Below, piece by piece: positions 15,346 through 56,405 of a stretch of 64,000 nucleotides of DNA. The stretch lies in IMG/VR virus record IMGVR_UViG_3300031276_000162, one strand, 5' to 3'. The notes under the pieces are model-generated. The model did no database searches, was not told the DNA's origin, and saw only the letters and a program-made list of their open reading frames with translations. The translations under genes were made by a program, and so were the position numbers. Position 1 is the stretch's first letter, and every line of letters begins with the position of its first letter. The stretch comes from an uncultured virus (IMG/VR IMGVR_UViG_3300031276_000162) (lineage: Duplodnaviria; Heunggongvirae; Uroviricota; Caudoviricetes).

Positions 15346-15987
15346 GTGGATATCAAACGCACAGCCGCCGACCTCAAGCAGGTCGTTCACATCGCCAACC
15401 GCTTGCTGAAGCGCATCGCGCACAAGGCGGGCTTCGAGGATCCCGGCGAGGTGCTGGAGATCGACCACATGGCGGGCGGCTACCGCATCGAGATGCAGGG
15501 CGGCGCGGTGGATCTGAGCCCCCGCGGCACAGCCACCGAGGTCACCCTCTGGATGGAGGGCTACCTCGAAGGGCTGGAGCGGATGGAGACGTTCGTGGTC
15601 CGGTTCGCGGCGCCGCCCGGGCAGCGGGCGAAGCTGCAGCGCAACGCGCGCCGCCCCGCGCGTCGGCGCATGAAGCGCAACTCCTTCATGGAGCCCGATG
15701 GCCAAGGCCCCGAAGACTGGCTGATCGTCGACACGGCCCAGGGCGGCACGGTCATCCCGTACGACGTGGTCGGCAGCATGCGCAAGAGCGACGTGCTGGA
15801 GTACACCGAGGCGTTCGACGTCAAGGACATCTACGAGGTGGAGAAGCAGCGCGGCTACGGGGTGCGCCTGAGCGCGCCCGGGTACATGGACTGCACGGAC
15901 TGGGAGTTCTTCGCGACCGAGGCCGAGGCCCGCGCGCGCATGGCCGAACTCCAAGCCGAGTGCGACGAGGAAGACGAGGAGTACTGA
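15346..15987 (+). CDS. Two-module protein with basic LQRN/MKRN linker
   Basis: KLQRNARRPARRRMKRN separates two globular parts; acidic C-module with RLSAPGYMDCTDW. Confidence 0.7.
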   Translation: MDIKRTAADLKQVVHIANRLLKRIAHKAGFEDPGEVLEIDHMAGGYRIEMQGGAVDLSPRGTATEVTLWMEGYLEGLERMETFVVRFAAPPGQRAKLQRNARRPARRRMKRNSFMEPDGQGPEDWLIVDTAQGGTVIPYDVVGSMRKSDVLEYTEAFDVKDIYEVEKQRGYGVRLSAPGYMDCTDWEFFATEAEARARMAELQAECDEEDEEY

Positions 15988-15989
15988 TC

Positions 15990-16361
15990 ATGCAGATGCC
16001 AATCCAGCCGCCGGGTGTGCCCAACCCTTGGGCGGTGCACGTGCACCCGTACCCGACCCGCTTTCACGGCGGCCGGTGGGGGCGGCCGGAGTTTGGCTAC
16101 CCGGTGGTCAACCGGCCCACCAACATCGACCGCCCCACGCACCTGCGCGGGCTGGGCGAGGTGCAGTACCAGGTGGGCGACGGCGTCTTCCGCTACCCGT
16201 CGTCGGGCGGCGGCGGGGTGTTCAATCGCGCCATCTCGGGCGCCGTCGGCGAGCCCAGCGAGGGCGCGCGCATCGCCGCCTTCGTCGGCGCGCTGGTGGT
16301 GGCCGCGGGCGGCACCTACCTGTTGTTGTCGTATCGACAGAAAGCGAGCCGACGCGCGTAG
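15990..16361 (+). CDS. Tail-anchored protein
   Basis: LRGLG, GDGVF, GGVF; TM plus basic tail. Confidence 0.7.
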   Translation: MQMPIQPPGVPNPWAVHVHPYPTRFHGGRWGRPEFGYPVVNRPTNIDRPTHLRGLGEVQYQVGDGVFRYPSSGGGGVFNRAISGAVGEPSEGARIAAFVGALVVAAGGTYLLLSYRQKASRRA

Positions 16362-17485
16362 TGGCCACCGACGTCATCATCTCCGCGTTCGCGTCCAAGC
16401 GCGAGGCCCAGCCGGTCGAGCAGCTGCGCGATGCGCCCAAGCTCATCGGCGTGGGCGGCATCGGCTCAGACCAGTACCAGGCAAGCTTCGACACGGCGCG
16501 CAAGCCGCGCGAGCCGTGGGGCGGCAAGCCCTTCTCGCGCGAGGCCGAGCGCTACCGCAACAAGGGCGGTGGCTCGATTCTCAAGGGGCTCATCCGCGCG
16601 ATGGCCCCCACCATCGAGCCCCGGCGCATCGCGCTGGTCGGCTTCAGCGCGGGCAACACCTTCCTGTCGCAGATCCTCAAGAACGAGGAGGACGCGGCGC
16701 TGGTCGACGTGGTGCTTGCCATCGACGGGATGACCTACAGCAAGGACTGGAAGGGCAACCCGGTGGGGTTCGATCACTGGGTGCGCTTCGGGATGCGCGC
16801 CGCCGGCGTGAACCGGATGGCGTCGGCGAGCAACCCGTACGGCGGCCCGCTGATGGTGGTGAGCCACACGGACATCGTGAGCGGCGCGCCCAGCAAGGCC
16901 AGCAGCACGGGCGACGCGGCCGCGCACCTGCTCCGCCAGGTGAACGGCCCCTACTGGGATGCGGCCAATCATGTGAGCCAGGACGTGCTGGCCGCGCAGG
17001 GCGCCAAGCAGCAGCAGGTGCTGCAGCGTCTGCGCGCCGCCTCGCGCCAGATCCCCTCGCCGCTGCGCATCCGGGGCGGCAACCCGCCGACCACCAAGAC
17101 GTGGGCCCAGCCGCCCTATCCAGTGGACCAGGGTTACCTCGGCAACCTGTGGACGCTGCGCTGGGGCGGCACGGGCGGCCCGGACCACATCCTGCAGTCG
17201 AACCAGGTGCAGAAGATGCTCTGGGAGACCTACCTGGTGCCCCGCTGGAACTCCCGCAACGAGGACGTGGCGGGGCTCGGCGGCGGCCTCGGCGGCGGGG
17301 GCGGCCCGGTCGCCCACCGGCTCGCGGGGGTGGACTGGACGACGCCGGACGCCACCCAGCCCGGCGGCGGCATCGTGCAGCCCGGCACGCTGGGCGGCCG
17401 GTGGGGCTTCTTTCTGATGCTCGCGGGGGTAGGCGCGGCGGGGCTCTGGGGCGGTAAGAAGCTGATGGAGACGTTGCAGTCATGA
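16361..17485 (+). CDS. Alpha/beta-hydrolase-like protein with C-terminal anchor
   Basis: LVGFSAG nucleophile elbow, IDG, late DH; VAGLG before TM. Confidence 0.6.
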   Translation: MATDVIISAFASKREAQPVEQLRDAPKLIGVGGIGSDQYQASFDTARKPREPWGGKPFSREAERYRNKGGGSILKGLIRAMAPTIEPRRIALVGFSAGNTFLSQILKNEEDAALVDVVLAIDGMTYSKDWKGNPVGFDHWVRFGMRAAGVNRMASASNPYGGPLMVVSHTDIVSGAPSKASSTGDAAAHLLRQVNGPYWDAANHVSQDVLAAQGAKQQQVLQRLRAASRQIPSPLRIRGGNPPTTKTWAQPPYPVDQGYLGNLWTLRWGGTGGPDHILQSNQVQKMLWETYLVPRWNSRNEDVAGLGGGLGGGGGPVAHRLAGVDWTTPDATQPGGGIVQPGTLGGRWGFFLMLAGVGAAGLWGGKKLMETLQS

Positions 17486-17543
17486 CCGGCCCGAGCACGA
17501 TGACAACCACCCCGGCGCGCCCTGCGCTGCAGATAGGGAGGCA

Positions 17544-19249: not shown

Positions 19250-19659
19250 TGTACGTAGCACTAGGCGCCGACGTCGAGTGGCTGGGGCCGCCTCACTCAC
19301 TTGTCAAGAGCGTGCAGCAAGAGACCAACGTGGCTCTCAAGCGCTTGGGCTGCCACCAGATCGGGACCGACGGCAAGCTCGGGCCTGAGACCTGCGGCGC
19401 GATCGACTACGTGATGACGCGCGGCGAGCACAGCGCCGCGGCGGTGGCGCAGGCCCAGTGGCTCATGGGGATCTGTAAGCGCGCGTCCTACAGCTGCAAG
19501 GCCAGCGGCGGTGGCGGCGCGGCGCTGCCATACGAGCCGGCGACGGCCAGCGCTGCCTCTCCGCTCTCCTCATCCAATCTGATCGTGGGCGCCGTGGTGG
19601 TCGCCACGGTGGGCATCGTGGGCTACGCGATTGCAAAGAAGAAGGGCATGGTGAAGTGA
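19249..19659 (+). CDS. Paralogous peptidoglycan-binding-like tail-anchored protein
   Basis: MYVALG; DGKLGPETCGA; ends AKKKGM like the upstream gene. Confidence 0.7.
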   Translation: MYVALGADVEWLGPPHSLVKSVQQETNVALKRLGCHQIGTDGKLGPETCGAIDYVMTRGEHSAAAVAQAQWLMGICKRASYSCKASGGGGAALPYEPATASAASPLSSSNLIVGAVVVATVGIVGYAIAKKKGMVK

Positions 19660-20123
19660 TGATCCGCGGCTATGTTGACACCAGCAAGTTCCGGGGTCCG
19701 TACGCGGCGCCCGGTCTGATGATGAGCGGACTCGGCTCGGCGTGGCCCGCGCGCCGGCAGATGTACGACGTCTCCAACTTCATGGCGCCCTACGACGAGT
19801 ACTACTTCCAGGACAACCAGCTGCTCGGTCTCGGCGCTGCGGCGCAGGTGAGCGATGCGGAGCTGGCGGCGATGCCGGACGAGGTCCGGCGCTACCTGGT
19901 CACCGGCGAGCCCATGGGCACACTGCGCCGCGATCTCGGCGCCGCGAGCGCCCAGATCCCGCGCTGGACGTGGGCCATCCTGATGGTGGGCGGCGGGTAC
20001 ATGACCTACCGCAGCTACCAGGCGTGGAAGAAGGCCCGGGCGGCCAAGCCGGCCGCACGCGGCCCCTACACGCCCGCCGAGCGACAACTCAAGGCCAACG
20101 CCCGCCGCCGGGCGAGGAGATAG
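19656..20123 (+). CDS. Membrane protein with both GLG and LKAN motifs
   Basis: MSGLG, LLGLG, TM, QLKANARRRARR. Confidence 0.7.
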   Translation: MMIRGYVDTSKFRGPYAAPGLMMSGLGSAWPARRQMYDVSNFMAPYDEYYFQDNQLLGLGAAAQVSDAELAAMPDEVRRYLVTGEPMGTLRRDLGAASAQIPRWTWAILMVGGGYMTYRSYQAWKKARAAKPAARGPYTPAERQLKANARRRARR

Positions 20124-20878: not shown

Positions 20879-21460
20879 ATGGCCCGACGCACCTACGTGG
20901 AAAACCCTCGCGCCCTCGCCCGCAACGAGGCCGAGCGGCTACGGGAGACCTTCGTGGATCGTCCCGTGGAGCGGGTCGAGTACGTGAAGTGGGACTGGCC
21001 CAAGCGCATGCATGAGGTGGGCCAGTGTGTCGCGGTTATGTACAGCAGTGACAAGTGGCGCTCCCGCGGTGACAACGAGGACTACAAGCATGTGAGCGAG
21101 GGCGAGCAGCGATTGTTTGTGCGCGAGGGCTTCCTGCGTGACGCCGACGCCGATCCCAGCGGGCGGCAGAAGCTCGATGTGTGCGGGCCCGCGGTCGAGG
21201 TCAACGGCCGGATGCCGGAAGCCTTCGCGGTGCTCGCCCCGCTGCTGGGCATCCAGGCGCGCCTCTATGAGTGCGCGGGTGAAGCGGAGCCGGAGCTGGG
21301 GGACGAGCACTTCCAGATCAACATTGATGGGGCCACGCTTGGGGCGGCCAAGCATCCGGACACGGGCGAGACGTTCCTGATCGTGTACACGCCGAGTCAG
21401 GTGCTCGCCATGGTGACGGGCGACGTGCTCGACGTGAAGCAGGACGGGATCGTTGGGTAG
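20879..21460 (+). CDS. Hypothetical protein with YVENP leader
   Basis: GGAG RBS; MARRTYVENP then globular domain. Confidence 0.75.
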   Translation: MARRTYVENPRALARNEAERLRETFVDRPVERVEYVKWDWPKRMHEVGQCVAVMYSSDKWRSRGDNEDYKHVSEGEQRLFVREGFLRDADADPSGRQKLDVCGPAVEVNGRMPEAFAVLAPLLGIQARLYECAGEAEPELGDEHFQINIDGATLGAAKHPDTGETFLIVYTPSQVLAMVTGDVLDVKQDGIVG

Positions 21461-26753: not shown

Positions 26754-27413
26754 ATGCGCATGGGGCAGTGGCTGGTTGCAGGTCTCGGTGCCGTGGTGGT
26801 GAGCGCCACCGTGGCGTACGCCATGACCGAGCCGCTGCTGCGCCCAGGCGACCGGGTGGTGCTGATCGGGGACTCGCTCGCGGTGGGCCTCGGGGAGATG
26901 GCGGCCTACCAGGGCCAGAGTGCGCTGCGGGTCGAGTTGGGCCGCCGCCAGGTCAACCTGGAGCCGCTCGGCGAGGGAGCGACGACGAGCCTGCAGTGGA
27001 GCGGGACCGGGCACCTCAACACCGAGCGGCTGCAGCCGGCGCTCAGCTCCCAACCGCGCGCGGTGCTGGTGGTGCTGGGCACGAACGACTGCCACTACGA
27101 CTACGGCCACTGCCCGCCCTTCCAGCAACGGGTTTTCGCCATCGCCCAGAGCATCCAGGCGGCGGGCGCCGCGCCGGTGCTGGTGGCGATGCCCGAGATG
27201 CCGTGGGAGAGGGAGCACGACGGCCGGGCGCGCATGCAGTTCGCCCGGCAGGTCATGAAGAGCGCTGCCCGCCATACGGGTGGCGTCTACATCGAGCCGC
27301 CGCCCATGGCCGTGAAGCGGTGGCCTGACCGGCTGCACCCGGACCCGGAGGGCAACCGGGTGTGGGCGGGTTTCATCATGAGCGTCCTGGGCCGGGCGAG
27401 GAGATGGAAGTGA
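26754..27413 (+). CDS. SGNH/GDSL hydrolase
   Basis: IGDSL, LGTND, DRLHP; N-terminal anchor. Confidence 0.9.
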   Translation: MRMGQWLVAGLGAVVVSATVAYAMTEPLLRPGDRVVLIGDSLAVGLGEMAAYQGQSALRVELGRRQVNLEPLGEGATTSLQWSGTGHLNTERLQPALSSQPRAVLVVLGTNDCHYDYGHCPPFQQRVFAIAQSIQAAGAAPVLVAMPEMPWEREHDGRARMQFARQVMKSAARHTGGVYIEPPPMAVKRWPDRLHPDPEGNRVWAGFIMSVLGRARRWK

Positions 27414-28204
27414 TGACGCAATATGGACTGGGGTGGATCCCCGACGAGCCTGACGCGCGCGATGCGCTCTTCGCGACGCGCAACTTGTTTCCGACGCTGG
27501 ACGCGCCGGCGAGCTGTGATGGTCGCGAGTGGGTGGCCGACATTCTCGACCAGAACCCCCTGCCCTCGTGCGTGGCCCAGGCCGTCAACGGCGCCATCCG
27601 CGCGGTGCAGTGGCACCAGGACGGCGGCGACCCGCCGGAGCTGACCTCGCGCTTCTGGACCTGGTACTACGCGCGGCTGCAGCACGGCGAGCACCGCAGC
27701 ATCACCGGCACCTACATCCGGCTGGCGGTCAAGGCTCTCAATCGCTTGGGCCGCCCCCCCGAGCACGTCTGGCCGCACGTGCTGAGCGATCTTGATGCCA
27801 CGCGTCCGACGTGCCTGCGCAAGCCGCCGCCGGTGGTGAGCGCCCACGCGCACGACAAGCGGTTAGTAGGCTACCACCGGATCCTGGAGACCGGGGCCGA
27901 GCGGGTAGCGATGATCAAGCGCAGCGTGAGCCAGCACCACTTCGTGGTCTTCGGCACGCTGGTCAGCCAGGAGTTTGCCCGCCCCGGCGCCAAGGCGCGG
28001 TGCTACCCGCGACCGGGCCCGAGCGCCACCATCGCCGGCGGCCATGCCATGTACATCGTGGGCTATGACGCCGACGGTGCGTGGATAGCCAACAGCTGGG
28101 GTACGGGGTGGGGCGACGGTGGCTTCGCGCACCTGAGTTGGGACTACCTCATGTGGTACGAGACGCGCGATCTCCAGGCCATCACCCTACGGGAGGCCGC
28201 GTGA
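27413..28204 (+). CDS. Papain-like (C1) cysteine peptidase
   Basis: GW.PD.PD.RD, DQ...SCVAQA, GGHAM.IVGYD, NSWG..WG. Confidence 0.92.
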   Translation: MTQYGLGWIPDEPDARDALFATRNLFPTLDAPASCDGREWVADILDQNPLPSCVAQAVNGAIRAVQWHQDGGDPPELTSRFWTWYYARLQHGEHRSITGTYIRLAVKALNRLGRPPEHVWPHVLSDLDATRPTCLRKPPPVVSAHAHDKRLVGYHRILETGAERVAMIKRSVSQHHFVVFGTLVSQEFARPGAKARCYPRPGPSATIAGGHAMYIVGYDADGAWIANSWGTGWGDGGFAHLSWDYLMWYETRDLQAITLREAA

Positions 28205-29171: not shown

Positions 29172-29837
29172 ATGACACGTCACAAGCGTAAGCTCACCCC
29201 GGTCCGCCGCGAGCTGCACTTCGCGGGGTATGACTTCACGAGCAGTCCAGAGGGGACCATCGTGCACCGGGAACGGGTAGACACGACGGCGCCCGGGGAC
29301 CACGGAGCTGATCCACTCGGCGACGGCACCTTCCGGATGGTGCCCTCGGGAGACGTGGTGGACTGGGACGAGCGCCAGCGACGGCTCGCCAGGTTCCACA
29401 AGAACTCGGACCGACGCGAGGGTGAACAACACCTCATCAAGGAGCTGGACCTGGGCGCGCGCGGTCAATTCCGGGTGACGCTGACCGCCGCCAGTGCCGA
29501 CGCCGGCCCGTACTACCTGGGCAACCGGTTCGAGTACTGGAAGCGCTTCGGCAGCAGCGAGCACGGACCGGCCGGAGTGGCGGGTAGCAACGCGCAGCGC
29601 GAGGCGTATGCCAAGGCGTACGCCGCCTTGAGCGGTCTCATGCTCATCGAGCCGGATGAGGTGCGCGGGTGGGCTGACGTGCGCTATCTGGTGGATCTGT
29701 CAGCCAAAGCGGTGCAGTGGGCCGTCGCCCGCGCGAAACGGCAGGGCACGGTGAACGTTCGGGAGGGCGACATCGAGCTGTCGGCGAACGTGAAGTTTTT
29801 GGAGCTGGCCGGCAAGGCTGGCTACACCGTGGACTGA
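29172..29837 (+). CDS. Modular protein with basic leader and FHKN junction
   Basis: AGGAG RBS; MTRHKRK; RLARFHKN. Confidence 0.7.
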   Translation: MTRHKRKLTPVRRELHFAGYDFTSSPEGTIVHRERVDTTAPGDHGADPLGDGTFRMVPSGDVVDWDERQRRLARFHKNSDRREGEQHLIKELDLGARGQFRVTLTAASADAGPYYLGNRFEYWKRFGSSEHGPAGVAGSNAQREAYAKAYAALSGLMLIEPDEVRGWADVRYLVDLSAKAVQWAVARAKRQGTVNVREGDIELSANVKFLELAGKAGYTVD

Positions 29838-30066: not shown

Positions 30067-32082
30067 ATGGCTGGCAAACAAACGGTTGGGAAGGCGTTCC
30101 GTATCGGCAAGAAGGACGTGCGTGGCTACGGCTACGTGGATCCTCCGAGTCAGCGAAGGATGCGCCGCAACCCACCGGGCGTATCGGCAATCGCTGCAAT
30201 CAACGGCCCCGGTGCTTACCGGCGGCATGTTCGTAGTGCGCGGGAGGCTATGGCTGGCCTCAGCGCCAACAAGCGACGTGCGCGTGCACGCACCCTGACG
30301 CGCGCTGAAGGAAGTGCGTTCGCAAGTCGCATGGCAGAGGCCAAGTCCAGGAAGGCAGGAGACAAGATGCGCCGAAATCGTCAAACCCCAGCCCAGAAGC
30401 GGGCTTCGCTCAGAAACCTCGCCAAGGGACGTCGCAAGCAGCGCGGCGGCCGCCTGCGCAAGAACACGGCAAGTCTGAAGCGGCGCGCCGTCCGCCGGCG
30501 TCCGCTGCGGGCCAACCCGAAGAAGCGGCGCGCCACGCGCAAGACCGCTCCGAAGCGTCGGCTCCGCGCCAACGCCGCCAAGCGGCGCAAGACGACCACC
30601 CGCAAGCGTCGGACGCTGCGGCGCAACGCGCCCAAGCGTCGGATGAGCAAAGCCGCTCGCTCCGCTGCCGCGAAGAAGGGCTGGCGCAAGCGCAAGTCGC
30701 TGCGCCGCAACGCGCCGAAGCGCCGGACCACGGCCAAGCGCCGTCGGGCCGCCCCCCGCAAGCGTCGGAGTCTGCGCCGCAACGCGCCGAAGCGTCGCAC
30801 GAGCAAGGCCGCTCGCTCCGCCGCCGCCCGCAAGGGCTGGCGCAAGCGCAAGTCGATGCGTCGCAACGCGCCGAAGCGCCGGGCCACGTCCAAGCGGCGT
30901 CGGGCCACGCCGAAGCGTCGGAGCCTGCGTCGCAACGCGCCGAAGCGTCGCACGAGCAAGGCCGCTCGGTCGGCCGCCGCCCGCAAGGGCTGGCGCAAGC
31001 GTCGCGGTCTGCGCCGCAACGCGCCGAAGCGCCGGACCACGTCCAAGCGGCGTCGGGCCGCTCCGAAGCGCCGCTCGATGCGTCGCAACACCGGCAAGCG
31101 CCGCATGTTCCGTCGCAACCAGGGCGCCGTCGAGACGGCCAAGGCCGCTCTCATGGCCGGCGCGCTGATCACCGGCGGTCTGGTGGCCGAGAAGGTGCTC
31201 GCGAAGGTGCTGACCAGCCTGGTGCTGGACAAGGTGCTCGGCGACTCGCAGACCGGCGAGCCGGCGGCGGTGACCGGGCTCGGTGCCGTGGAGCCGTACA
31301 AGAACATCCTCGCTGGGGTGCTCGCGGCTTCGGCTGGCCTGGTGGCAACGCATTACGTGGTGAAGGACTCCGAGACCAAGGCGCTGATCGCCGGCGGCAT
31401 GGTCGCGGGGCTGCTGCACACCGTGGTGGTCGCTGGCCTCTCGCGCATGGGCGAGGGCTCGGCGGCGGGCTACCTGGCTGGTGCTGACGACGCGATGGCC
31501 GCTCGCTTGAGCGCCATGACCGGCTTCGGTGCGAGCCTCCAGCCGCGCTACGCGCAGGTCGCGGGGCTCGGGCGGCAGGCGCCGTTCGAGGCGTATGCCG
31601 GCGCCCCGGGCATGGGCGAGTACTTCGAGTCGGGCGTCGAGGGCATGGGCAACTACATGCCGAACGACGACATCCAGCAGGCCGCTGCTGGCTTCGGTGG
31701 CGCGGACGACGACTACCAGGGCACCCACATCAGCCCGGCCAGCGATCTGGACCGGCAGCTGAGCATCGCGGAAGCCGCAGCTGGCGTGGGGGCCTACCCC
31801 CAGATCCAGCAGGCGGCAGCCGGCATGGGCGAGTACTTCCGCCAGCCCGTTGCGGGCATGGGCGAGTACTTCCGCCAGCCGGTAGCGGGTCTGGGTGAAT
31901 ACCTGACCAGGAAGCCGGATGGCAGTGTGGTCAGCGCGGGTCGAGCAGACACGTGGGTCCCGGGGACCAGCGACCCGCAACTGTGGGCCGGTACCCGTGA
32001 GGTGCAACGGCTGCAGGAGAGTACGGCCATGACCCCGGCCGGCATCATCAGCACCGCGGGAGGCGACGGCATCTTCGGATAG
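30067..32082 (+). CDS. Arg/Lys-rich core-like protein fused to membrane helices and GMG repeats
   Basis: N-half protamine-like with many xRRN; hydrophobic helices; C-half AGMGEY repeats. Confidence 0.85.
   Translation: MAGKQTVGKAFRIGKKDVRGYGYVDPPSQRRMRRNPPGVSAIAAINGPGAYRRHVRSAREAMAGLSANKRRARARTLTRAEGSAFASRMAEAKSRKAGDKMRRNRQTPAQKRASLRNLAKGRRKQRGGRLRKNTASLKRRAVRRRPLRANPKKRRATRKTAPKRRLRANAAKRRKTTTRKRRTLRRNAPKRRMSKAARSAAAKKGWRKRKSLRRNAPKRRTTAKRRRAAPRKRRSLRRNAPKRRTSKAARSAAARKGWRKRKSMRRNAPKRRATSKRRRATPKRRSLRRNAPKRRTSKAARSAAARKGWRKRRGLRRNAPKRRTTSKRRRAAPKRRSMRRNTGKRRMFRRNQGAVETAKAALMAGALITGGLVAEKVLAKVLTSLVLDKVLGDSQTGEPAAVTGLGAVEPYKNILAGVLAASAGLVATHYVVKDSETKALIAGGMVAGLLHTVVVAGLSRMGEGSAAGYLAGADDAMAARLSAMTGFGASLQPRYAQVAGLGRQAPFEAYAGAPGMGEYFESGVEGMGNYMPNDDIQQAAAGFGGADDDYQGTHISPASDLDRQLSIAEAAAGVGAYPQIQQAAAGMGEYFRQPVAGMGEYFRQPVAGLGEYLTRKPDGSVVSAGRADTWVPGTSDPQLWAGTREVQRLQESTAMTPAGIISTAGGDGIFG
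30616..31090 (+). repeat. Three ~153-156-bp coding repeats (RRNAPKRRxSKAARSAAAxKGWRKR...)
   Basis: Units start near 30619, 30775, 30928. Confidence 0.85.
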
Positions 32083-32369: not shown

Positions 32370-33122
32370 ATGGCCAAAGTTGTCAGCATGCGCGAGCGCG
32401 TTCACCAGCCGTTCTGGGATTCGCTCATTCGCACGGCGGGACTGACTGCGGGGACTGTCACCGACAGCACCAGTCTGTTCACGTCGAACGCGGCACGCAC
32501 GCAGGCTACGACGAACCTGATCAACGGCAGCACGCTGCCGTCCGACCAGTCCCACGTCGTGCTCGCGCTGCGGTGCTTCGCGTGGTACCGCAACCCCATC
32601 CGCCGGGTGCCCGGTGGTGGCACTGGGGAAGTCGCCGACAACGGCGACTACCTGCTGCTCGCCCCCTGGCTCGTTGGTGGTGCGGCGGTTGGTCAAGCTC
32701 CGGCAACGGTGCAGGACTACTATCGCATCATCTGGCAAACCGAGGAGCAGCTCCACTGGTCCTTCGGCACCGGCCTCAAGAACTCCATCGACAACATGCC
32801 GACCTGGTACTTCCCCGCAGGTGGGGGAATCAGTGGCGACATGGGTGGAACGACGGACCTGATCCACTGGCAGAATTCCGGCACCGACGGCCATTCGGGC
32901 ATCCTGCGCCTCGCGCGCGCGATCCTGATCCCGCCGCGCCAGAACATCCTGTGCAGTGCGACCATCTACGCTCTCCCCGACGGCGGGGCGGCGCAGACGT
33001 TCGGGACCACGCAGGGCAGCCGCAACATGCTGTCGCTCCGAGACAACCTCAACGCGATCGACGCGATGCAGAAGGTCATCACGTTCACGTTCGACGGTCT
33101 GTTCTCGCGAGACGTTCAGTAG
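32370..33122 (+). CDS. Candidate major capsid protein (single jelly-roll-like)
   Basis: Strong RBS, downstream hairpin, 250 aa beta-rich without TM, QPFWDS..LF..TN...G.LP pattern, follows the core-like gene; fold is inferred. Confidence 0.6.
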   Translation: MAKVVSMRERVHQPFWDSLIRTAGLTAGTVTDSTSLFTSNAARTQATTNLINGSTLPSDQSHVVLALRCFAWYRNPIRRVPGGGTGEVADNGDYLLLAPWLVGGAAVGQAPATVQDYYRIIWQTEEQLHWSFGTGLKNSIDNMPTWYFPAGGGISGDMGGTTDLIHWQNSGTDGHSGILRLARAILIPPRQNILCSATIYALPDGGAAQTFGTTQGSRNMLSLRDNLNAIDAMQKVITFTFDGLFSRDVQ

Positions 33123-39516: not shown

Positions 39517-39927
39517 ATGTCGTACGAAGCCGTTCAGCCAACGTTCTATCAGTTCAAGGTGCCGGGCACGCCGTGGCAGACCGGCGCTCCGGGCTGGAGC
39601 GTGGCGCCGGTGCCGGGGTGGGGCCAGAACCCGAACCAGGTGGGGCCGCCGCGCATCGCCGTGAACGGCCCGGGCGACGACCCCCTCAAGCCGGTGGTGC
39701 AGCTGGCCACGCTGGGCGTGCTGGTGCTCGCCGGGGTGATGCTCTGGAAGTACGGGAAGAAGGAGCAGTGGTTCACGCCGAACGCGGGCGTGAATGGGTA
39801 TTGGAGGATCGTGAGGCGCAACGGCAAGTTGGATCCCCGCCGATTCGTCAGCTCACATGAGGCGGGCGCCGCGGCCAATAAGAAATATGGTCTCGGTAAT
39901 TGGACGTTGGAGTGGGAAGAGGCGTAA
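39517..39927 (+). CDS. Membrane protein with FTPN junction
   Basis: Pro/Gly/Trp-rich N-part, TM, FTPN then extra module. Confidence 0.7.
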   Translation: MSYEAVQPTFYQFKVPGTPWQTGAPGWSVAPVPGWGQNPNQVGPPRIAVNGPGDDPLKPVVQLATLGVLVLAGVMLWKYGKKEQWFTPNAGVNGYWRIVRRNGKLDPRRFVSSHEAGAAANKKYGLGNWTLEWEEA

Positions 39928-42306: not shown

Positions 42307-44460
42307 GTGGCCCGAGCGAGCTGGCCAGGGTCGGAATTCGCGGGTGCGCATTTTGACTACGCGCGAGCGGCCCGGAAACTCGACCGCTGGGACTTCATCG
42401 CGGCCTTCCTGATCTGGGCCACGCGCACGGCGGAGCGGCGCAAGGTTACGGGCGGCATGCAAGTGGTCGCAACCGAGTCGGGCTTCGAGTATGGATGGCC
42501 GGGCCTGATGCAGCCAATCAAGGACTCGCGCGAGCTGTACGAACGGGCCCGCCGCACGCCGCTGAGCTTCTACACGCGCCAGGCTGATGACCTACGCGCC
42601 GATCTGCTTGCAGAGGAGTCAGGGATGAAAGCAAACGCGCGCCGCAAGTCAAACGTCTCACCCATCGAGGCGCTGTCGCTGGCTAAGGTAAACGAGGGCG
42701 GAGTGGACTGGCAGACCGGAGAGCGGGTGGTGTTTGCGTTCACGCACAACACCCAGAAATCGCCCGGCGCCGGTCCCGGCGACCGCTACCAGCAGAAGAT
42801 CGAGCCGGCGGGCTACTACGCGACGGCCCGTGACGAGTCGGATACCGCAGCGGCCCCGCCGTCGGGGTGGGTGTGGGGCACAGCTCAAGTTACCCCGCTC
42901 GTGCTGGTCGAGAACACTCGTCGCGATGAGGAGGGCGTCTACGGACCGCACTCCCGGAAGGCGCGGCTCAGCGCGCACTACGGCGGCAAGAAGCGCAAGT
43001 CGCTGAGCCAGGCCGTATTGCGGGACGGCTACGACGCCATCGTGACCGTCGGCAAGTACGGCACCGGCGAGATTGTACTGCTGGACCCCCAACGCAGCAT
43101 TATCGGAACGGACGAACCCATGAGACAGAACGCATCTTCCGCCGCATCGGCCCGCTCACCCAGCGGCAGCTCCTGGACCACTCGCGCACCGTTCCACGTG
43201 GGCGGACAGTGGCGCTGGGTGACATGGACTCATCGCCACGCGAATAAGCACGCGGCCATCATCGAGAAGGCAGACGAGCTGGGCGCTGACGGTTGGGACT
43301 TCGGCCAAGCGGACCACGATCTGACCCGTGAGTCGCGGTATGCTCGCAACGCGAGCGAGCGCGGCGAGCGCATGCGACGCAACGGATCTCGTTGGAGTCC
43401 CGGCGACCCTCCCTTCCGGGTGATGGGGGAATCCAACGTTCCTACTGGTCCGGAGAGCGTGCCGTGGGTCGAGAGTAGCCACTGGAGCGAGGCGGATGCA
43501 GAGCAGGCACGCGATGCGTTGAAGCGTGAGGAGGGCCGAGCGTTCAGCTTCTGGGTCGAGCAGCGCCCCGGCGAGCGGATGAGCGCGAACCCGTCTTGGG
43601 GTGAGGGCTACGGCTACCCGTTCGTGACGCCCCGAGGGCGCCGCCTGCAGATGTTTCGCAAGGGTCAGAAGGTGCGCTTCTATGACGAGCGCGGCCGGCA
43701 GGTGGGCCCCGAGCAAAGCAATGTCGGGCCGGCCGTCGCTTATGCCATGGAACAGGGCTGGCGGGACGAAGGGGCAAAGGCCCAGGCGCGCCGACCGTCA
43801 CGTTACCAATGCGCGCGCTGCGGCGAATACACCGACGAGTCCAAGCTCAGCTCTGAGGGGGAGTGCTCAGCCTGCGCGATAGGCCAGGGCTTGCTCGGCG
43901 AGAGGTCGCAGCCGCAGATGTCGAAAAATGCGGCTCGGATGCGCCCCGCAGTGCGCCGCCTCGTGGCGGCGGTAGCTGACCAGCGAAACTTCGGCCGCGT
44001 GAGTCACCAGACAATCGAGGATGCCATCCAAGGGGGCTACGTAGTTGAGTTGCGGGAGGGCGTGCCCGGCTATGAGTATGGGGTGTATCCGTACCGCGCC
44101 ACAGACAAGGGTCTGGGGGCGCTGGGGCGCGCCACCAGCAAGGCTACCGGAAGAATGGACCCAGGTATTTTGCGTCGCCAGCGTGAAGAGATTGAACATG
44201 ATCGGCGCGTCCGGTTGCGTCCCAACAAGACCGGCCAGGGCAAGTACTGGGTCTGGCTCGTGCAGAAGGGGACGAACCAGCCGCTGCGGAGCGAGGGTCC
44301 CTACGGACCCCACGATCTCGAAGGGGGCAAGACGTTTGCACGCATCGGCGCCACCGAGGGCCAGCATGACCGCGCCGTGAGCCTGGGGCGTGACCCCGGC
44401 TGCCCGAGCTTCCAGATCGTGCGCCGCTACCGGGCGGGGACCGGCGAGCGGGTCATCTAG
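42307..44460 (+). CDS. Polyvalent-like modular protein A
   Basis: Dissimilar modules separated by MKAN, MRQN, YARN, MRRN, MSAN, MSKN, LRPN. Confidence 0.75.
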   Translation: MARASWPGSEFAGAHFDYARAARKLDRWDFIAAFLIWATRTAERRKVTGGMQVVATESGFEYGWPGLMQPIKDSRELYERARRTPLSFYTRQADDLRADLLAEESGMKANARRKSNVSPIEALSLAKVNEGGVDWQTGERVVFAFTHNTQKSPGAGPGDRYQQKIEPAGYYATARDESDTAAAPPSGWVWGTAQVTPLVLVENTRRDEEGVYGPHSRKARLSAHYGGKKRKSLSQAVLRDGYDAIVTVGKYGTGEIVLLDPQRSIIGTDEPMRQNASSAASARSPSGSSWTTRAPFHVGGQWRWVTWTHRHANKHAAIIEKADELGADGWDFGQADHDLTRESRYARNASERGERMRRNGSRWSPGDPPFRVMGESNVPTGPESVPWVESSHWSEADAEQARDALKREEGRAFSFWVEQRPGERMSANPSWGEGYGYPFVTPRGRRLQMFRKGQKVRFYDERGRQVGPEQSNVGPAVAYAMEQGWRDEGAKAQARRPSRYQCARCGEYTDESKLSSEGECSACAIGQGLLGERSQPQMSKNAARMRPAVRRLVAAVADQRNFGRVSHQTIEDAIQGGYVVELREGVPGYEYGVYPYRATDKGLGALGRATSKATGRMDPGILRRQREEIEHDRRVRLRPNKTGQGKYWVWLVQKGTNQPLRSEGPYGPHDLEGGKTFARIGATEGQHDRAVSLGRDPGCPSFQIVRRYRAGTGERVI

Positions 44461-48900: not shown

Positions 48901-48906
48901 ATATAT

Positions 48907-50086: not shown

Positions 50087-50093
50087 GGCCGAC

Positions 50094-50321: not shown

Positions 50322-50327
50322 GCCGCG

Positions 50328-51134: not shown

Positions 51135-51762
51135 AACGCTGGTCTTCGCTGCCCCCGGCCGCGACGAGGCGCACGCCCGCTGCTTCGCCTCCATCGAGGC
51201 GAGCGACATCGGCCAGGACTACACCGTGCAGCTGCACCCGGCCGGGGTGAGCGCGCGCGAGCACTGGCATGCCACCATGCTGTGCGCCGCCGCGGCCGCG
51301 AGCGACTACGTGCTCGTGCTCGAAGACGATGTGCTCGTCAACCGTCACATCCTGCACAACTGCCGAACCTGGAGGTGGCGCTACGACCCGCACTTCGCGG
51401 CCGGGTGGCTCTACAAGCCGGGCGGCCTGATGCCCGGGGTGGACGGCTGGTACACGAAGAACATCGAGTGGTACGGCGGTATCGCCGTGCTGTGGAAGCG
51501 CGCGGCGCTGGCGCAGCTGATGCCGCGGGCGTGGGAGCTACTGGCCGAGCTGGACTCGAACGCGTGGGACGTGGCCATCTCAAAGGCGGTGCTGACGGGC
51601 GGCTACGGCATCAGGATGCACTCGCCGAGCCTGGCCGAGCACCTGGACGAGATGCCGAGCCTGATGGGCCACCAGCCGAACTACTGGTTCCGGACGAGTC
51701 GGGGGACGTACGACGAGCAGTGGCAGCGGGCGCCCGGGGACCGGAACGGGCAGTTCGTTTGA
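51115..51762 (+). CDS. GT-A glycosyltransferase-like
   Basis: VLVLEDD, PSLAEH. Confidence 0.75.
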   Translation: MPSERIETLVFAAPGRDEAHARCFASIEASDIGQDYTVQLHPAGVSAREHWHATMLCAAAAASDYVLVLEDDVLVNRHILHNCRTWRWRYDPHFAAGWLYKPGGLMPGVDGWYTKNIEWYGGIAVLWKRAALAQLMPRAWELLAELDSNAWDVAISKAVLTGGYGIRMHSPSLAEHLDEMPSLMGHQPNYWFRTSRGTYDEQWQRAPGDRNGQFV

Positions 51763-52161: not shown

Positions 52162-52287
52162 ACCCCTGGCGTGTCAGATCCGCCACCTCTGGCGCTATCA
52201 TGGTCGTCGCCGCCGTCTGCTCCCCGGTGGAAGCGTAGCACCCCCCGAATTGGCCAGCGGGCCCCCTGGTCGGTTAGCATTGGGGGC

Positions 52288-54903
52288 ATGTCGCTAGCAG
52301 AAGACCGGGACACGTTGGATCAGTTGGTTCAGATGGCCGCCGAGTCGGCGGAACTGGACATTGAGCCTGCCGGTGGGGTCAGCGACGCGCTGGTCCGGGT
52401 AGCAGAAGAGTACGACGGCGCGGTGGAGATTGCGCTCGGCGAGATGGTGAAGGTCTTCCCGCCCAAGGGCGGCGCGACGCCCGAGGACATTTTCGAGGCC
52501 GACGGTGCGTACAACATCCTGATGACCTTGCGCGGCGAAGGGGTTGGGATCTGGGACGGGCGCTGGGAGGAGTTCTACGACGACACCGAGGGGCCGGAGC
52601 AATTCCTGAAGGACACGCTCTCGCAGTACGCCGACGACACGGGGGGGGGCAAGCTGAACGAGGCGTTTGACAACGAAGCGCACGAGACTTCGCTGCGCCG
52701 CAGTCGTCGCCAGAGCAAACTGCAACCGAACGCGCGGGCTCGCGCTACCGCTGAGCTTCAGACCACCAAACTACGACGCGGCCAGGAAGTGCTGGCGAAG
52801 ACCTACGAGGGAGAGCTGTACCCGAAGACCTACGCGAACCGCACCCAGGCTCAGAAGGCTGCCGCGAAGCTCGGCTCTGGCTGGATCGTAATCGGGCGCC
52901 GGCCGTTCTACGTTGCGCGGGCCAGCACTACGGAGAGCGGCATAGCCAGAGCCGCGTCACGCTTCTACAGCATCGGCGAGGGGGGCCTGACTCCCGTCAC
53001 CGGCGGCCGCGACATCTACCTGCAGCCCGGCGTCATCTACTACATGGGCGCGAGCAGTAGCCCCGATCAGATCATGATCACGGGGCTCGAAGGCGCGAGC
53101 GACTCGGGAGCCATCCACTACAAGAGCTACCCGTTCACGGGCAAGGAGGCGCGCATCGAGAACGAGATCGGGCGCGACCTGATTGCGCAGGGCACTGCGA
53201 CAGAGCTGAAGCGGCGCAAGGAATTCCCTGCGCGTATGGCCTCGCTCAAGCGGGACCCGGGTTACGCCAAGGTCATCGAGGCCGACCCAGACTACCAGGC
53301 CGACATTGCCTCGATGGAGGCGGTGCTTGCCGGGCGACCGGGCAAGGTCGAGGACCCCTACGACTACTGGCCCAGGTACGTGACCGTGGAGGCCACCAAG
53401 CCCGCCAGTGAGTACCCGCGCGGCGATCCATGGTACGGCGCGGAGGAGTACGGGGGCGTGGGTGGTCTGGAGCGCGGCGGCAAGACGCTGTACGAGATCC
53501 ATACCAACCGCAAGGGCGAGCGGGCGTTGCGGGCGGATGACCGCTTCCGGGTGGTCGGGTCGAGCGAGGAGCGGCCGAAGTACGAAGAGAACCCTCGCCA
53601 CGGCCGCCCCTCAGAGGAGCAGTTGCTGCAGGGCTCGGTCTACGAGGATGCCTTCCGTGAAGCCCGCGATGGCGGCTCCACGATCCAGGAAGCCCGGGTC
53701 TATGCCCAGGAGCAGGCGGATGCTGACCGGGGCGAGCGTCTGGCCGGCGCGGGCGGGCACGACTGGGAGCACGAGCGCAACGCCGCTGGCGCACATAACG
53801 GGTCCACAGGAGTAGTCTTCGAGGCTGCCACCCGAGGCGGTAAGTACCGCATCGAGGTGGCCAGGAGAGGCGACGAATACGCAATGACAACGTTCACTAG
53901 CGGGCAGTCCGCTGGTCGAGCCACTGGATATACGCAAGGGGAAATGCTCAAGCGCGTGACCGGAGAGATCTATAATGCCAAGAAGTATGATGGCATCAAT
54001 TACCGTATCTCCCACGACGAGTTGGGAGTCGGAACGGTTCTGGGCGCGTCAATGTACGGGCCGGAGTTTTCCAAGGGTAGCCACCGTCCGAACTCCCCAC
54101 CCCGCCCCAAGCCCGGTGAACAGCAAATCGCGGTGACGCACCAACACGCGCAGATCCGCTACCGATACAACCGCAAGGCGTACACGCTGATAGTAAGCCG
54201 CGGTGGAAGCTGGGAGCTGACCAGCGCGGGCGCGGTTGCTAGCGGCAGTGTCGTGGGTGTTAAGAGTTCCATGCCCAGGCTGGCGCAGGAGCGCGGCCGG
54301 AAGGTGCACGACAGCACCCTGACGGAGGCGGCGCGGCAGCTATACGACTCGGGGTTGTGGGACGGAGTGGCTGGTGGCCCAGGCGCCAAGTGGGACATTC
54401 TGGAAGAGCAGGGCGGCGGACACCACCGCCCCAACGCACGCCCTGGGCTGACCCCCTCGGAAGTCGCTCAACTCCCGGTTGGGTCCATCGTGTACTCCCG
54501 GGCGGCTGGGTTTGCCATGAGTGTGGTTCCTGACGGCGGCCTTGCTCCCATCACAGTTCTGCCGGAAAGGGCTGGCGGCGGCGAGCCTGACGGCGAACCT
54601 ATCGCGTCGTTCGGTGAGGAGTTTGCTCTCGTGAAGCAAGGGCGCGGCAAGCTGCTGACCGAAGGAACGGCACAGCGGCTAGTTATCACCTGGATGCGAG
54701 AACAAGGCGCGCAGCACAACCCCGGCCAGGACACCACCCTCGCCGAGATCAAGCGCCGCGCCGCCGACGCCAAGCAGGCTCGGAAGTCGTGGGCCTTCTT
54801 CACCCTGCACGGCAAGGAAGCCGGCATCAAGCTGACGGGCGTCGGCGATGCGTGGCTGAAGCGCGCAACAAAGGCCGACATTGAACGAGTGGCTGTCTAC
54901 TAG
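52288..54903 (+). CDS. Polyvalent-like modular protein B
   Basis: Modules separated by LQPN, YEEN, HERN, HRPN, HRPN, AQHN. Confidence 0.75.
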   Translation: MSLAEDRDTLDQLVQMAAESAELDIEPAGGVSDALVRVAEEYDGAVEIALGEMVKVFPPKGGATPEDIFEADGAYNILMTLRGEGVGIWDGRWEEFYDDTEGPEQFLKDTLSQYADDTGGGKLNEAFDNEAHETSLRRSRRQSKLQPNARARATAELQTTKLRRGQEVLAKTYEGELYPKTYANRTQAQKAAAKLGSGWIVIGRRPFYVARASTTESGIARAASRFYSIGEGGLTPVTGGRDIYLQPGVIYYMGASSSPDQIMITGLEGASDSGAIHYKSYPFTGKEARIENEIGRDLIAQGTATELKRRKEFPARMASLKRDPGYAKVIEADPDYQADIASMEAVLAGRPGKVEDPYDYWPRYVTVEATKPASEYPRGDPWYGAEEYGGVGGLERGGKTLYEIHTNRKGERALRADDRFRVVGSSEERPKYEENPRHGRPSEEQLLQGSVYEDAFREARDGGSTIQEARVYAQEQADADRGERLAGAGGHDWEHERNAAGAHNGSTGVVFEAATRGGKYRIEVARRGDEYAMTTFTSGQSAGRATGYTQGEMLKRVTGEIYNAKKYDGINYRISHDELGVGTVLGASMYGPEFSKGSHRPNSPPRPKPGEQQIAVTHQHAQIRYRYNRKAYTLIVSRGGSWELTSAGAVASGSVVGVKSSMPRLAQERGRKVHDSTLTEAARQLYDSGLWDGVAGGPGAKWDILEEQGGGHHRPNARPGLTPSEVAQLPVGSIVYSRAAGFAMSVVPDGGLAPITVLPERAGGGEPDGEPIASFGEEFALVKQGRGKLLTEGTAQRLVITWMREQGAQHNPGQDTTLAEIKRRAADAKQARKSWAFFTLHGKEAGIKLTGVGDAWLKRATKADIERVAVY

Positions 54904-54912
54904 GAGAAACCC

Positions 54913-55500
54913 ATGGCACGGAAGCAGCCGAGGAAGTCCAGCAAACGGCGCATGCGTCGCAACGAGCAGCAGACGGCGAAGGACGCGACGCAGTTTTACG
55001 CGCAGCCCTACCAGGGGGGCGCGGGCTTCTACTTCGACACCGCCGAGGAGTTCGAGACCGTGCTGGGTCGGTTCAGGAAGCGCGGCGTCGAGGAGTTCGA
55101 GCTGCAGGTCATCAACGGCGAGGACGAGGACACAACGCTGGCTGCCGCCCTGCTGAGCGCTGGCGCACTCGACCAGACGAACATCGAGCGCTGGTACGAG
55201 GACATCGAAGAGGAGCTGGACACCTACCAGAAGGCCGCCCTGCTCTACATCGTCGCCTACGGCGAGCACGACCTCGACAAGGCCCTTGGCTTCATCGAGA
55301 ACTTCAGCGTCTACGAGGGGCGGATGAAGGAAGCCGCCGAGGAGATGCTCGACGACCAGGGCGGCCCCACCACCCTGCCCAAGGAAGAGCTGGAGCGCTA
55401 CTTCGACTACGAAGCCTACGCCCGCGACCTCAACTTCAATGGCGAGCTACACGAGATCGAGCTGGGCGGCGAGACCTACTCGCTGCTCGGGACGTTCTGA
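54913..55500 (+). CDS. ardA: ArdA-like antirestriction protein with basic MRRN leader
   Basis: Acidic; C-terminal LERYFDYEAYARDL signature. Confidence 0.8.
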   Translation: MARKQPRKSSKRRMRRNEQQTAKDATQFYAQPYQGGAGFYFDTAEEFETVLGRFRKRGVEEFELQVINGEDEDTTLAAALLSAGALDQTNIERWYEDIEEELDTYQKAALLYIVAYGEHDLDKALGFIENFSVYEGRMKEAAEEMLDDQGGPTTLPKEELERYFDYEAYARDLNFNGELHEIELGGETYSLLGTF

Positions 55501-55508
55501 GGCTGAGC

Positions 55509-56405
55509 ATGGCGACCAAGAAGAAGCTTGCCCGTAAACGCTTTCTCGTGCTTGGCACTGCGGACTACTTCCGCGATCGGGATCTGCTTTTCAAGTACGG
55601 CCGCCACACGATCGAACGCGCCGCCCCCACGAAGGTCGAGGCGATGCGCATCGCCTACGAGTTCATGGACGCAAACGAGGTGCAGGGTCGCGAGGCAAAG
55701 GTTTGGATCGAGGAGCAGAAGCTCTCCCGCGGACAGTACTACGGCGAGGGCTACGGTGCGGTTGCGTCTTGGCGAGCGAGCAACTGGGGGGAAAGAGGTG
55801 AGGCGGAGATGAGGCGCAACAAGTCCGTTGACGAGGATGACATCAGGGATGCGTTGGAGTCGCAGCTGCAGACGATGGCCGACGAGTCCGCCGCCCAGGC
55901 GCACAGCATGGTGGACGACCAGCTGCTGATGGATCTGGGCGAGCTGGACTACGACACCGACGAGGTGTACGTCATCGCGGAGTTCGGCGACGAGGTCGGC
56001 GTGAGCGAGGACCTCCTGGTCGATCCGTCTTGGTACAAGGAGCTTGGCCTGGAGCCGCCCGAAAACGTCGTCGACAAGTGGGGCGAGGCGAGTACGAAGG
56101 AGAAGGGTCCTGGCGGGTACGGCACTCGTGCGGACTGGGCGCTCATCGAGTGGCTCAGGGAGCAGGGCTACGAGCAGGTGAAGCGATTGGGCGGCGCGAA
56201 GCCGACCGGCGACGAGACGGAGATTGAGGGCGAGTTCGTGGTCGAGCGCGTGGCCCAAGAGCTGGGCGCCGCGAAAGACGACGTCTGGGAAGTACTCGAA
56301 GCCGAGTTTGGGGCGTCGCGCGATGGCCAGGTCTACTACAGCTCAAACTCGGGCCAGATCGACGTGTACGCGATCCCGCTCGAAAGCGAGGACGACGAGG
56401 ACTGA
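55509..56405 (+). CDS. Two-module protein, highly acidic after MRRN
   Basis: MATKKKLARKR; EMRRN junction. Confidence 0.75.
   Translation: MATKKKLARKRFLVLGTADYFRDRDLLFKYGRHTIERAAPTKVEAMRIAYEFMDANEVQGREAKVWIEEQKLSRGQYYGEGYGAVASWRASNWGERGEAEMRRNKSVDEDDIRDALESQLQTMADESAAQAHSMVDDQLLMDLGELDYDTDEVYVIAEFGDEVGVSEDLLVDPSWYKELGLEPPENVVDKWGEASTKEKGPGGYGTRADWALIEWLREQGYEQVKRLGGAKPTGDETEIEGEFVVERVAQELGAAKDDVWEVLEAEFGASRDGQVYYSSNSGQIDVYAIPLESEDDED

Follow-up and report, generated by a model that had tools for sequence, protein, structure and literature searches.

A recurrent phi-x-x-N peptide motif in a core polyprotein and in multi-domain proteins of an uncultured large bacterial virus: a candidate processing site

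A short peptide motif, phi-x-x-N, recurs in a number of unrelated proteins encoded by the 64,000-nucleotide stretch of uncultured virus DNA analysed here (IMG/VR record IMGVR_UViG_3300031276_000162; the whole stretch is referred to as the window). Its working definition is [MLFYH]-x-x-N, with M, L, F, Y or H at position -3 from Asn; phi also stands, less often, for V or I. We propose that the motif is the recognition site of a virus-encoded endopeptidase, which would process a protamine-like core polyprotein and several multi-domain proteins, a reading that we regard as evenly poised between right and wrong. The most likely enzyme is a transglutaminase-fold cysteine protease. Genes are named below by their first position in the window, and a slash within a site marks the position behind Asn. 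The features on which the proposal turns are as follows.

30067..32082, + strand: core polyprotein gene, 671 amino acids (aa), with an Arg/Lys-rich N-terminal half, hydrophobic segments and a GMGEYF-repeat C-terminal half
30160..31119, + strand: motif-bearing basic region, from the first MRRN (N35) to the invariant FRRN (N351)
11073..11630, + strand: transglutaminase-fold cysteine protease, candidate enzyme for the motif

Fifteen of the 19 Asn in the 30067 protein lie in the motif, in agreement with the original prediction, made from the letters of the window, which had placed over a dozen there. About six of the 15 derive from a 156-bp tandem repeat (three copies at 30599-31061, 88% matches). 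A repeat artefact alone was rejected as the explanation, because the motif persists in the non-repeated parts of the protein and in 87 diverged homologues. These homologues match residues 353-671, come from metagenomes, are 369-876 aa long and include none with a name; apart from being rich in Arg and Lys, their N-terminal halves show little conservation. In their basic regions the motif is found on 810 of 1265 Asn (64%); 13 other offsets give 5-21%, and the background is 10%. His is the third most frequent residue at -3 (158 sites), the commonest residues outside the definition are A (147) and V (66), and the residue at this position, which would be P4 of a protease site, is almost the sole hydrophobic residue of the basic regions. 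The residues that follow Asn are R, G, A, P and K, with Pro favoured at the would-be P1' position by 1.4 bits (112 of 1265 sites); sites in the window with Pro after Asn comprise YVEN/P, MSAN/P, YEEN/P and AQHN/P. Successive Asn are mostly 5-30 residues apart. The Asn of FRRN at the end of the basic half (N351) is the only one invariant among 39 aligned sequences, and relatives at 27% identity keep sites such as YAAN/RRRR and FTPN/R. The hydrophobic segments of the 30067 protein lie at residues 360, 414 and 437.

Outside the core polyprotein, every motif string listed by the original prediction is present at its gene: LQRN and MKRN (15346), LKAN (19656), YVEN (20879), FHKN (29172), LRRN (37595), FTPN (39517) and MRRN (54913 and 55509). 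Two of its counts were low, as 42307 has nine motifs rather than seven, and 52288 has six plus AQHN rather than five plus AQHN. The motif-bearing genes are unrelated to one another, as had been stated, with one weak match only in blastp among the 11 proteins (54913 versus 52171, E 0.004). A residue of the motif stands at -3 from 49 of the 87 Asn in these 11 named proteins, which had been picked for the motif. Over 76 called proteins the motif is found on 111 of 414 Asn, compared with a residue background of 17.6%. With 30067-32082 left out, position -3 gives 98 of 406 Asn (z 3.3) and the other 15 offsets within -8 to +8 give z values from -1.3 to 1.9, so that only -3 stands out. MRRN is found three times outside 30067.

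Different synonymous codons are used for the motif, and the pattern CGNCGNAAY (six in frame, two out of frame, two non-coding) shows no enrichment in the other reading frames or on the opposite strand. A DNA-level motif was therefore rejected, indicating that the signal is in the peptide. General helix-capping by Asn was also rejected as the source, since in 44 proteins outside the candidate blocks the -3 position gives 40 of 217 Asn (z 0.1).

As an independent test, we used a position matrix covering -4 to +2 around Asn, trained on core-protein homologues alone and scored against the composition of the homologues' own basic regions, with the threshold set such that 60% of the training sites pass. 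The matrix recovers 34 sites in the window without 30067, compared with 16.3 +/- 3.9 expected, and none of 500 shuffles reaches 34; chance accounts for about half of the matrix matches outside 30067, and the loose motif is noisy. Sixteen of the sites fall in ten named genes, where 2.7 are expected. The other 67 genes hold 18 sites (13.4 expected, a number reached by 116 of 1000 shuffles), 16 genes annotated as replication or enzyme genes hold 6 (4.1 expected), and 20 genes outside 11-57 kb hold 2 (4.4 expected). The comparison with shuffled controls and with replication and glycan genes, for which the original prediction had called, thus comes out in its favour: the excess lies in the named genes and not in the enzyme and replication genes. 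The matrix was also run on whole related viral genomes, with their core protein left out; the last entry of each line is the number of shuffles that reach the count found.

G001: 49 sites, 27.4 expected, 0 of 200 shuffles
G002: 55 sites, 42.8 expected, 4 of 200 shuffles
G004: 55 sites, 42.3 expected, 4 of 200 shuffles
G003: 45 sites, 37.8 expected, 28 of 200 shuffles
G009 (distant): 47 sites, 51.9 expected, 153 of 200 shuffles

Outside the core protein the signal is thus strong in G001, and weak or absent in G003 and G009. The motif is universal in the core protein, and its use in other proteins varies by lineage. Motif use outside the core protein is greatest in the window and its closest relative.

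The proteins that use the motif at internal borders are two multi-domain proteins, whose sites are listed here.

52288..54903, + strand: multi-domain (polyvalent-type) protein, 871 aa, or 910 aa from a GTG at 52171
Motifs of 52288, + strand: LQPN 52720-52731; YEEN 53581-53592; HERN 53770-53781
Further motifs of 52288, + strand: HRPN 54082-54093; HRPN 54424-54435; AQHN 54709-54720
42307..44460, + strand: multi-domain protein, 717 aa
Motifs of 42307, + strand: MKAN 42625-42636; MRQN 43120-43131; YARN 43339-43350; MRRN 43372-43383
Further motifs of 42307, + strand: MSAN 43579-43590; MSKN 43918-43929; LRPN 44215-44226

When the databases were searched exhaustively with the 52171-54903 protein, 577 matches at E <= 0.001 were obtained, which fall on at least four separate segments (40-174, 257-471, 494/549-625 and 753-850 in the 910-aa numbering). 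The segments sit at the start, middle or end of the matching proteins, indicating that they are independent modules. LQPN (N187), YEEN (N474), the two HRPN (N641 and N755) and AQHN (N850) are at most 16 residues from module borders; in all, five of the seven [MLFYH]xxN motifs of the 52171 protein, in addition to AQHN, are this close to homology-defined domain borders. HERN (N537) lies inside the longest domain-C matches and just before the shortest, and YRYN (664-667, N667) is not at a border. At the fourth module (D) the window reads HRPN/ARPGLTPSEVAQLPVGS, compared with MAAN/PERGTTITAAEVSALPVGS in G001.

A similar exchange of letters at a kept position is seen in the 42307 protein. Its last module reads LRPN/KTGQGKYWVWL in the window versus HTPN/GGYYVWVL in G003, and is a separate small open reading frame (ORF) in L019, a contig of a Pirellulales metagenome-assembled genome (MAG). 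Another module has MRQN/ upstream of it in the window versus YEYN/ in the related locus L014, and MSAN/ precedes a WGxxYG module common to the 42307 protein and P0002-P0005. The large proteins of the relatives are strings of units split by Y-E-x-N/A, M-A-A-N/P, L-E-P-N/G and similar sites (G001 30676-33759; G003 89855-91870, 105689-107506 and 107503-110151), and their border sites often lie in neutral or acidic surroundings (YEEN/A, MESN/A, LEPN/G). The claim that the motif marks leader and module boundaries is therefore upheld, both by the domain borders of 52171 and by motifs that are kept at the same domain in relatives with changed letters. The description of basic flanks as a general feature of the motif is not, because many of the relatives' sites are neutral or acidic (Y-E-x-N/A). 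That sites turn up whether the surroundings are basic, neutral or acidic is easier to reconcile with an enzyme site indifferent to its context than with an element that binds DNA.

In smaller proteins the motif is found behind leaders, in linkers or ahead of basic tails.

54913..55500, + strand: ArdA-like anti-restriction protein; MRRN (54952-54963) closes its basic leader of 17 residues
20879..21460, + strand: conserved protein with the N-terminal leader MARRTYVEN/ (YVEN 20894-20905); family identity 38-55%
55509..56405, + strand: uncharacterised protein in which MRRN (55809-55820) parts an N-terminal part with a basic start from an acidic C-terminal part
15346..15987, + strand: two-part protein, basic linker with LQRN (15634-15645) and MKRN (15670-15681)
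19656..20123, + strand: membrane protein with C-terminal LKAN/ARRRARR (LKAN 20088-20099)
39517..39927, + strand: membrane protein with FTPN (39772-39783) and VRRN (39811-39822) past its hydrophobic segment
37595..37867, + strand: small membrane protein with LRRN (37751-37762)
29172..29837, + strand: protein with a basic N-terminal part and FHKN (29394-29405), a weak case that falls below the matrix threshold

The Pfam ArdA profile (PF07275) scores 34.2 bits on 54913, compared with a cut-off of 27, over residues 90-185 and only profile positions 88-152. An anti-restriction family of PHROGs (4.8e-9) and a Microcystis phage antirestriction protein also match, and the direct match to the solved ArdA 2w82 is weak (E 0.23). 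An AGGAG Shine-Dalgarno sequence lies upstream of the ATG start. The original prediction that ArdA begins right after its leader is approximately right, in that the 17-residue leader ends in MRRN, but the Pfam match covers only residues 90-185. The 54913 protein aligns with the first module of 52171 at 34% over 58 residues (E 0.004), and this module may be a second, divergent ArdA-like unit.

Eight of nine members of the 20879 family carry an N-terminal M-x-R-R-[YL]-x-x-N (once MRTN) ahead of the conserved body, with a leader length of 4-9 residues. The unrelated 19656 and 20879 families (19656-19700, 20879-20905) share an M-x-R-R-x-Y start in most members, which may be a separate signal. C-termini with the motif followed by an Arg tail are present in homologues of 39517, namely MVSN/RRQRRRTRR (L012) and MAAN/RRRGRARR (L015).

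Of the two enzymes that the original prediction had proposed, one is 11073. The 11073 protein matches Pfam PF01841 with 30.7 bits (cut-off 23) and has 309 metagenomic homologues of about 177 aa, 40 of which were aligned and are 54-70% identical. C112, H145 and D162 are invariant in the 41 aligned sequences, leaving the triad intact. The AlphaFold2 (AF2) model has a predicted local distance difference test (pLDDT) score of 93.2. Foldseek matches include the putative cysteine proteases 3isr and 3kd4, PNGase, Rad4, LapG and TgpA, as well as the virus-encoded isopeptidases PeiW and PeiP, and a fold search of BFVD gave mostly unnamed viral proteins. A homologue is present in 10 of 10 related viral records, the distant ones included. 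The sequence MRDN within 11073 was rejected as a self-cleavage site, because its Asn is not conserved. A second enzyme had been named as well:

27362..28204, + strand: papain-like peptidase, weak Pfam C1 match

Of this pair, 11073 stands as a strong candidate by its triad, its fold and its presence in every record, whereas the papain-like protein, with a homologue in one of five relatives, was rejected as the conserved enzyme of the group.

In the mechanism that we envisage, the endopeptidase would cut after Asn, reading a hydrophobic residue at P4 and Asn at P1, and its primary and universal substrate would be the core polyprotein 30067-32082. The Arg-rich N-terminal half would give rise to protamine-like peptides of mostly 5 to 30 residues, presumably DNA-bound, and a cut at the last, invariant site FRRN (N351) would free these peptides from the hydrophobic C-terminal half. 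The motif would also have come to lie, in the genome of the window and in close relatives, between modules (42307, 52288) and behind short leaders (20879, ArdA 54913), an arrangement by which one protease would release separate modules. Processing would take place in the virion or in preparation for it.

Several observations weigh against this mechanism or narrow its reach. Pro is favoured after Asn, and the bond ahead of a Pro is refractory to most endopeptidases. Enzymes of the transglutaminase fold are also capable of deamidation, cross-linking or deglycosylation, and PNGase is among the fold matches of 11073. Outside the core protein, the excess of sites is modest in G002 and G004, not significant in G003 and absent in G009. 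Database homologues of the first module (domain A) of 52171 have a site within 25 residues in 11 of 56 cases upstream and in 9 of 58 downstream (6.4% by chance), which indicates a narrow use of the motif that fits one lineage only. No ArdA homologue was found in the five relatives examined, and the ArdA case is thus specific to this genome. In addition, the virion location of the substrates is something that we infer, and neither the window nor G003 yielded a recognisable capsid, portal or terminase.

We consider it unlikely that the motif is an uncut binding or structural element, which could be a hydrophobic-plus-Asn staple for DNA condensation or a docking motif that recruits its proteins to a capsid, scaffold, membrane or chaperone partner in assembly, and would then serve to target them and not to have them cleaved. 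The basic regions have hardly any hydrophobic residue other than that at P4, as would be expected of a contact point, and the motif proteins are encoded in one conserved block with a DnaJ-domain protein and many tail-anchored membrane proteins. The frequent Pro after Asn, awkward for proteases, would pose no such difficulty for an uncut element, and G[LMI]G[AESDQ][YFW], described below, is an example of a further short linear motif in the group for which cleavage is unlikely. However, a docking motif need not occupy every border, whereas phi-x-x-N lies exactly at the borders of unrelated modules and before a domain that is free-standing in another genome. Its acidic as well as basic contexts argue against DNA binding, and the short N-terminal leaders that end in it resemble propeptides.

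Modification of Asn in place of cleavage, by deamidation, by cross-linking to Lys through the transglutaminase-fold enzyme or by glycosylation at an atypical sequon, seems to us quite unlikely. Such chemistry would suit the fold, as transglutaminase-fold enzymes act on side-chain amides and PNGase, an enzyme of modified Asn, is among the matches; the window and its relatives have many glycosyltransferase genes, the substrates are Lys-rich, and Gly or Pro after Asn would be no hindrance to reactions of the side chain. Against this, there is no N-x-S/T sequon, since position +2 is S in 107 and T in 50 of 1265 cases (12%, not enriched) and R is the commonest residue there, and the glycan gene islands lie outside the conserved block. 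More than 20 glycans or cross-links in a DNA-condensing polybasic stretch would be hard to rationalise, and the border position, the leaders and the free-standing domain would be left unexplained. Finally, it is highly improbable that the recurrence outside the core family is largely a matter of chance or composition, with a loose pattern picked by eye in the Arg-rich linkers of a high-GC genome. The loose motif is indeed expected at about 18% of all Asn, half or so of the matrix matches are expected by chance, the 67 other genes (18 versus 13.4) and the genomes of G003 and G009 show no significant or genome-wide excess, respectively, and LSAN and YLGN in 29172 and FIEN and LNFN in 54913 are without supporting context. 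Chance would hardly single out -3 among 16 offsets, give 16 matrix sites versus 2.7 in the named genes and a window total that 0 of 500 shuffles reach, repeat MRRN three times outside 30067, or conserve positions across relatives despite changed letters.

Proteolytic processing after Asn, the reading that we prefer, has parallels in several known systems. The motifs of the prohead proteases of T4 and giant phages end in Glu and the enzymes are serine proteases with an assemblin-like fold; in T4, certain internal proteins, with their targeting leaders, act against host defence. As with T4 gp21, SPN3US gp245 and phiKZ gp175, a short consensus would be read in several proteins, which in those phages are head, internal and ejection proteins. 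The SPN3US study describes motif-directed multiple cleavages of head and ejection proteins by gp245, at 14 sites in nine substrates, with N-terminal propeptides removed and long propeptides cut at several copies of the motif (PMC10052503). Unlike in T4, SPN3US and phiKZ, the candidate here is a transglutaminase-fold Cys enzyme and no prohead-type protease was recognised in the window or G003; a polybasic polyprotein cut into many small peptides is no part of those systems. The adenovirus protease (AVP) belongs to a different fold. In adenovirus the Arg-rich precursors pVII and pX are processed by AVP and small basic peptides stay with the DNA. One account has this protease cutting DNA-bound core precursors and gives Met-Arg-Gly-Gly as a model substrate (PMC4246237), and the likeness would extend to a four-residue site, a hydrophobic P4, a cysteine protease, and basic DNA-bound core precursors together with other virion proteins as substrates. 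Asn would stand beside the scissile bond here, in contrast to Gly in adenovirus, whose host is eukaryotic, and the sole pointers to an evolutionary link are weak jelly-roll leads for 32370, described below.

Polyvalent proteins are predicted to be packaged in virions, delivered with the DNA and processed into units, and an embedded zincin-like metallopeptidase (MPTase) was proposed as the processor, with no linker motif given in the part of the paper available (Iyer et al. 2017, PMC5512222). Like them, the proteins described here consist of unrelated modules that recur in other combinations (at least four modules in 52171), and an anti-restriction domain is associated; unlike them, 42307 and 52171 have no embedded peptidase that was found, and the processing proposed here relies on a separate enzyme and on a defined motif at the borders. 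No Pfam family matches the 42307 or 52171 proteins at E <= 1, and hence no peptidase domain was detected in them. Legumain and other asparaginyl endopeptidases (clan CD) require Asn strictly at P1, and the related caspases read a hydrophobic P4. Unlike legumain, the candidate enzyme has a transglutaminase-like fold, and Pfam gave no C13 or C14 peptidase match, at the thresholds applied, among 91 proteins of the window and 139 of G003; most of these match nothing, so that a divergent C13 or C14 domain might escape such a scan.

Motif-directed proteolytic maturation, and the idea of packaged polyvalent proteins that are processed into units, are already in print. A literature search that covered few subscription journals gave nothing on Asn-directed phage processing or transglutaminase-like maturation proteases, and nothing on protamine-like phage cores or this virus group. 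If the motif is cleaved, it would represent a new protease specificity for a bacterial virus, with Asn at P1 read together with a hydrophobic P4, and a transglutaminase-fold enzyme would gain the role of a maturation protease. This would also apparently be the first bacterial virus to make many small Arg-rich peptides from one precursor in the style of the adenovirus core. Multi-domain proteins that are at present unreadable would become parsable strings of modules, with the motif predicting where units start and end, among them an ArdA anti-restriction unit behind a removable leader. With 87 core-protein and 309 protease homologues in metagenomes, the analysis also flags a widespread group that current profile libraries leave nearly unannotated.

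The window has a G+C content of 60-72% and nearly all of its genes are on the + strand. Profile libraries (Pfam, PHROGs) were run on 91 candidate proteins and named few of them; a formyltransferase and an FGE-sulfatase-like protein were named in addition to the following.

354-1325: DnaC-like loader, profile match
1322-2791: DnaB, profile match
23146-27413: glycosyltransferases, methyltransferase and GDSL hydrolase, profile match
38464-39105: DnaJ-domain protein, profile match
44666-51762: further glycan enzymes, profile match

With an alignment of the core protein, 11 loci were found on IMG/VR contigs of 54-182 kb; ten of these contigs are at least 95 kb long and three have direct terminal repeats. 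Among species-representative genomes the only matches are two contigs, both of Pirellulales MAGs (L019 and L020), which points to Planctomycetes as hosts, with the caveat that viral contigs can be mis-binned into MAGs. We conclude that the window is a member of an undescribed group of uncultivated large bacterial viruses of 95-182 kb. The gene order common to the window and its relatives comprises DnaC, DnaB, a 950-aa protein at 5945, 11073, 14262, 18599, 19656, 20879, 21463, the core protein, 32370, 33257, 34252, 35339, 36721, the DnaJ protein and 39517. This conserved block is interrupted at 23146-29162 and 44666-51762 by two islands of genes for glycans and modification, which contain three GT2 genes, a methyltransferase, a GDSL hydrolase, a GT47-like gene and a pyruvyl transferase. 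In the loci of the relatives, nothing that corresponds to the first island (23-29 kb) is present at that position.

As regards the type of virion, neither Pfam nor PHROGs identified a terminase, a portal or an HK97-type capsid protein, whether in the window or in G003. The latter is a 125-kb relative (L021-L027) with direct terminal repeats and a CheckV completeness of 80%, for which Pfam was run on the 139 proteins of at least 70 aa among 152 called, and PHROGs on 76 (about 100 aa or more, with no Pfam hit). The sole match to a "virion structural protein" in G003, phrog_1645, was rejected as an accessory protein shared with cyanophages and phage HMO-2011. A weak match to P22 gp7 within the conserved block (E 4e-4) is below the cut-off, and the only Walker A matches in the window are in DnaC, in DnaB and, weakly, inside 52171. 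The most conserved protein of the block is the following.

32370..33122, + strand: 250-aa protein, 53-82% identity in 12 relatives, predicted mostly beta

The model of this protein has a pLDDT of 57. In Foldseek the top rows are capsid proteins of iridovirus, PBCV-1 and PRD1, which match weakly (E 0.02-0.06), and weak jelly-roll fold matches include PRD1 P3 and SPV1, with a VIA Z of at most 6.8 to generic jelly rolls and a low-scoring Atlas lead to PRD1 P2/P3 clusters (0.75-0.77). These fold matches are only a lead towards a non-tailed, jelly-roll virus. At least 10 proteins within 12149-41358 carry just one hydrophobic segment, within about 35 residues of the C-terminus, and in many cases a basic tail comes after it; the tail-anchored candidates are 12149, 12892, 13890, 14262, 18599, 35339, 36316, 36721, 37019 and 40750. 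A particle or an assembly site that contains a membrane is suggested by such a clustering of tail-anchored membrane proteins. A wider picture could be drawn, of an undescribed Planctomycetes (Pirellulales) virus lineage of about 95-182 kb without recognisable tailed-phage hallmarks, maybe with a jelly-roll capsid and an internal membrane, whose protamine-like polyprotein would be cut after Asn by 11073 in the style of adenovirus, and which would reuse the same code to release anti-defence modules such as ArdA from their leaders and polyproteins for delivery together with the genome; as a whole, we hold this picture to be doubtful and assign it a low probability.

A second recurrent motif, G-[LMI]-G-[AESDQ]-[YFW] (for example GLGAYF and GMGEYF), is found eight times in four window proteins, compared with 0.6 expected, and 6-11 times in G001-G004, compared with about one expected, for a pattern that was defined after being seen. 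Its sites in the window are at 31609-31890 (in 30067), in the 36571 region, in the 40990 region and at 15038-15110.

The protein encoded at 36721-36933 has homologues in L008 and L011-L015, and an [ILV]-[DE]-x-N-P element is kept in six of seven homologues; the window copy is without it and has RRLGVSP in its place. Judging by this element, a structural role is probable for some phi-x-x-N matches, which would then not be sites.

Scans of IMG/VR and a phage database search with the 17544 protein gave nothing, and a back-translated RRNAPKRR pattern gave seven loci, every one of which is an out-of-frame chance match. An ORF at 14810-15343, which overlaps 14262-14954, encodes two GLGA[YF] motifs and two hydrophobic segments and may be a real gene.

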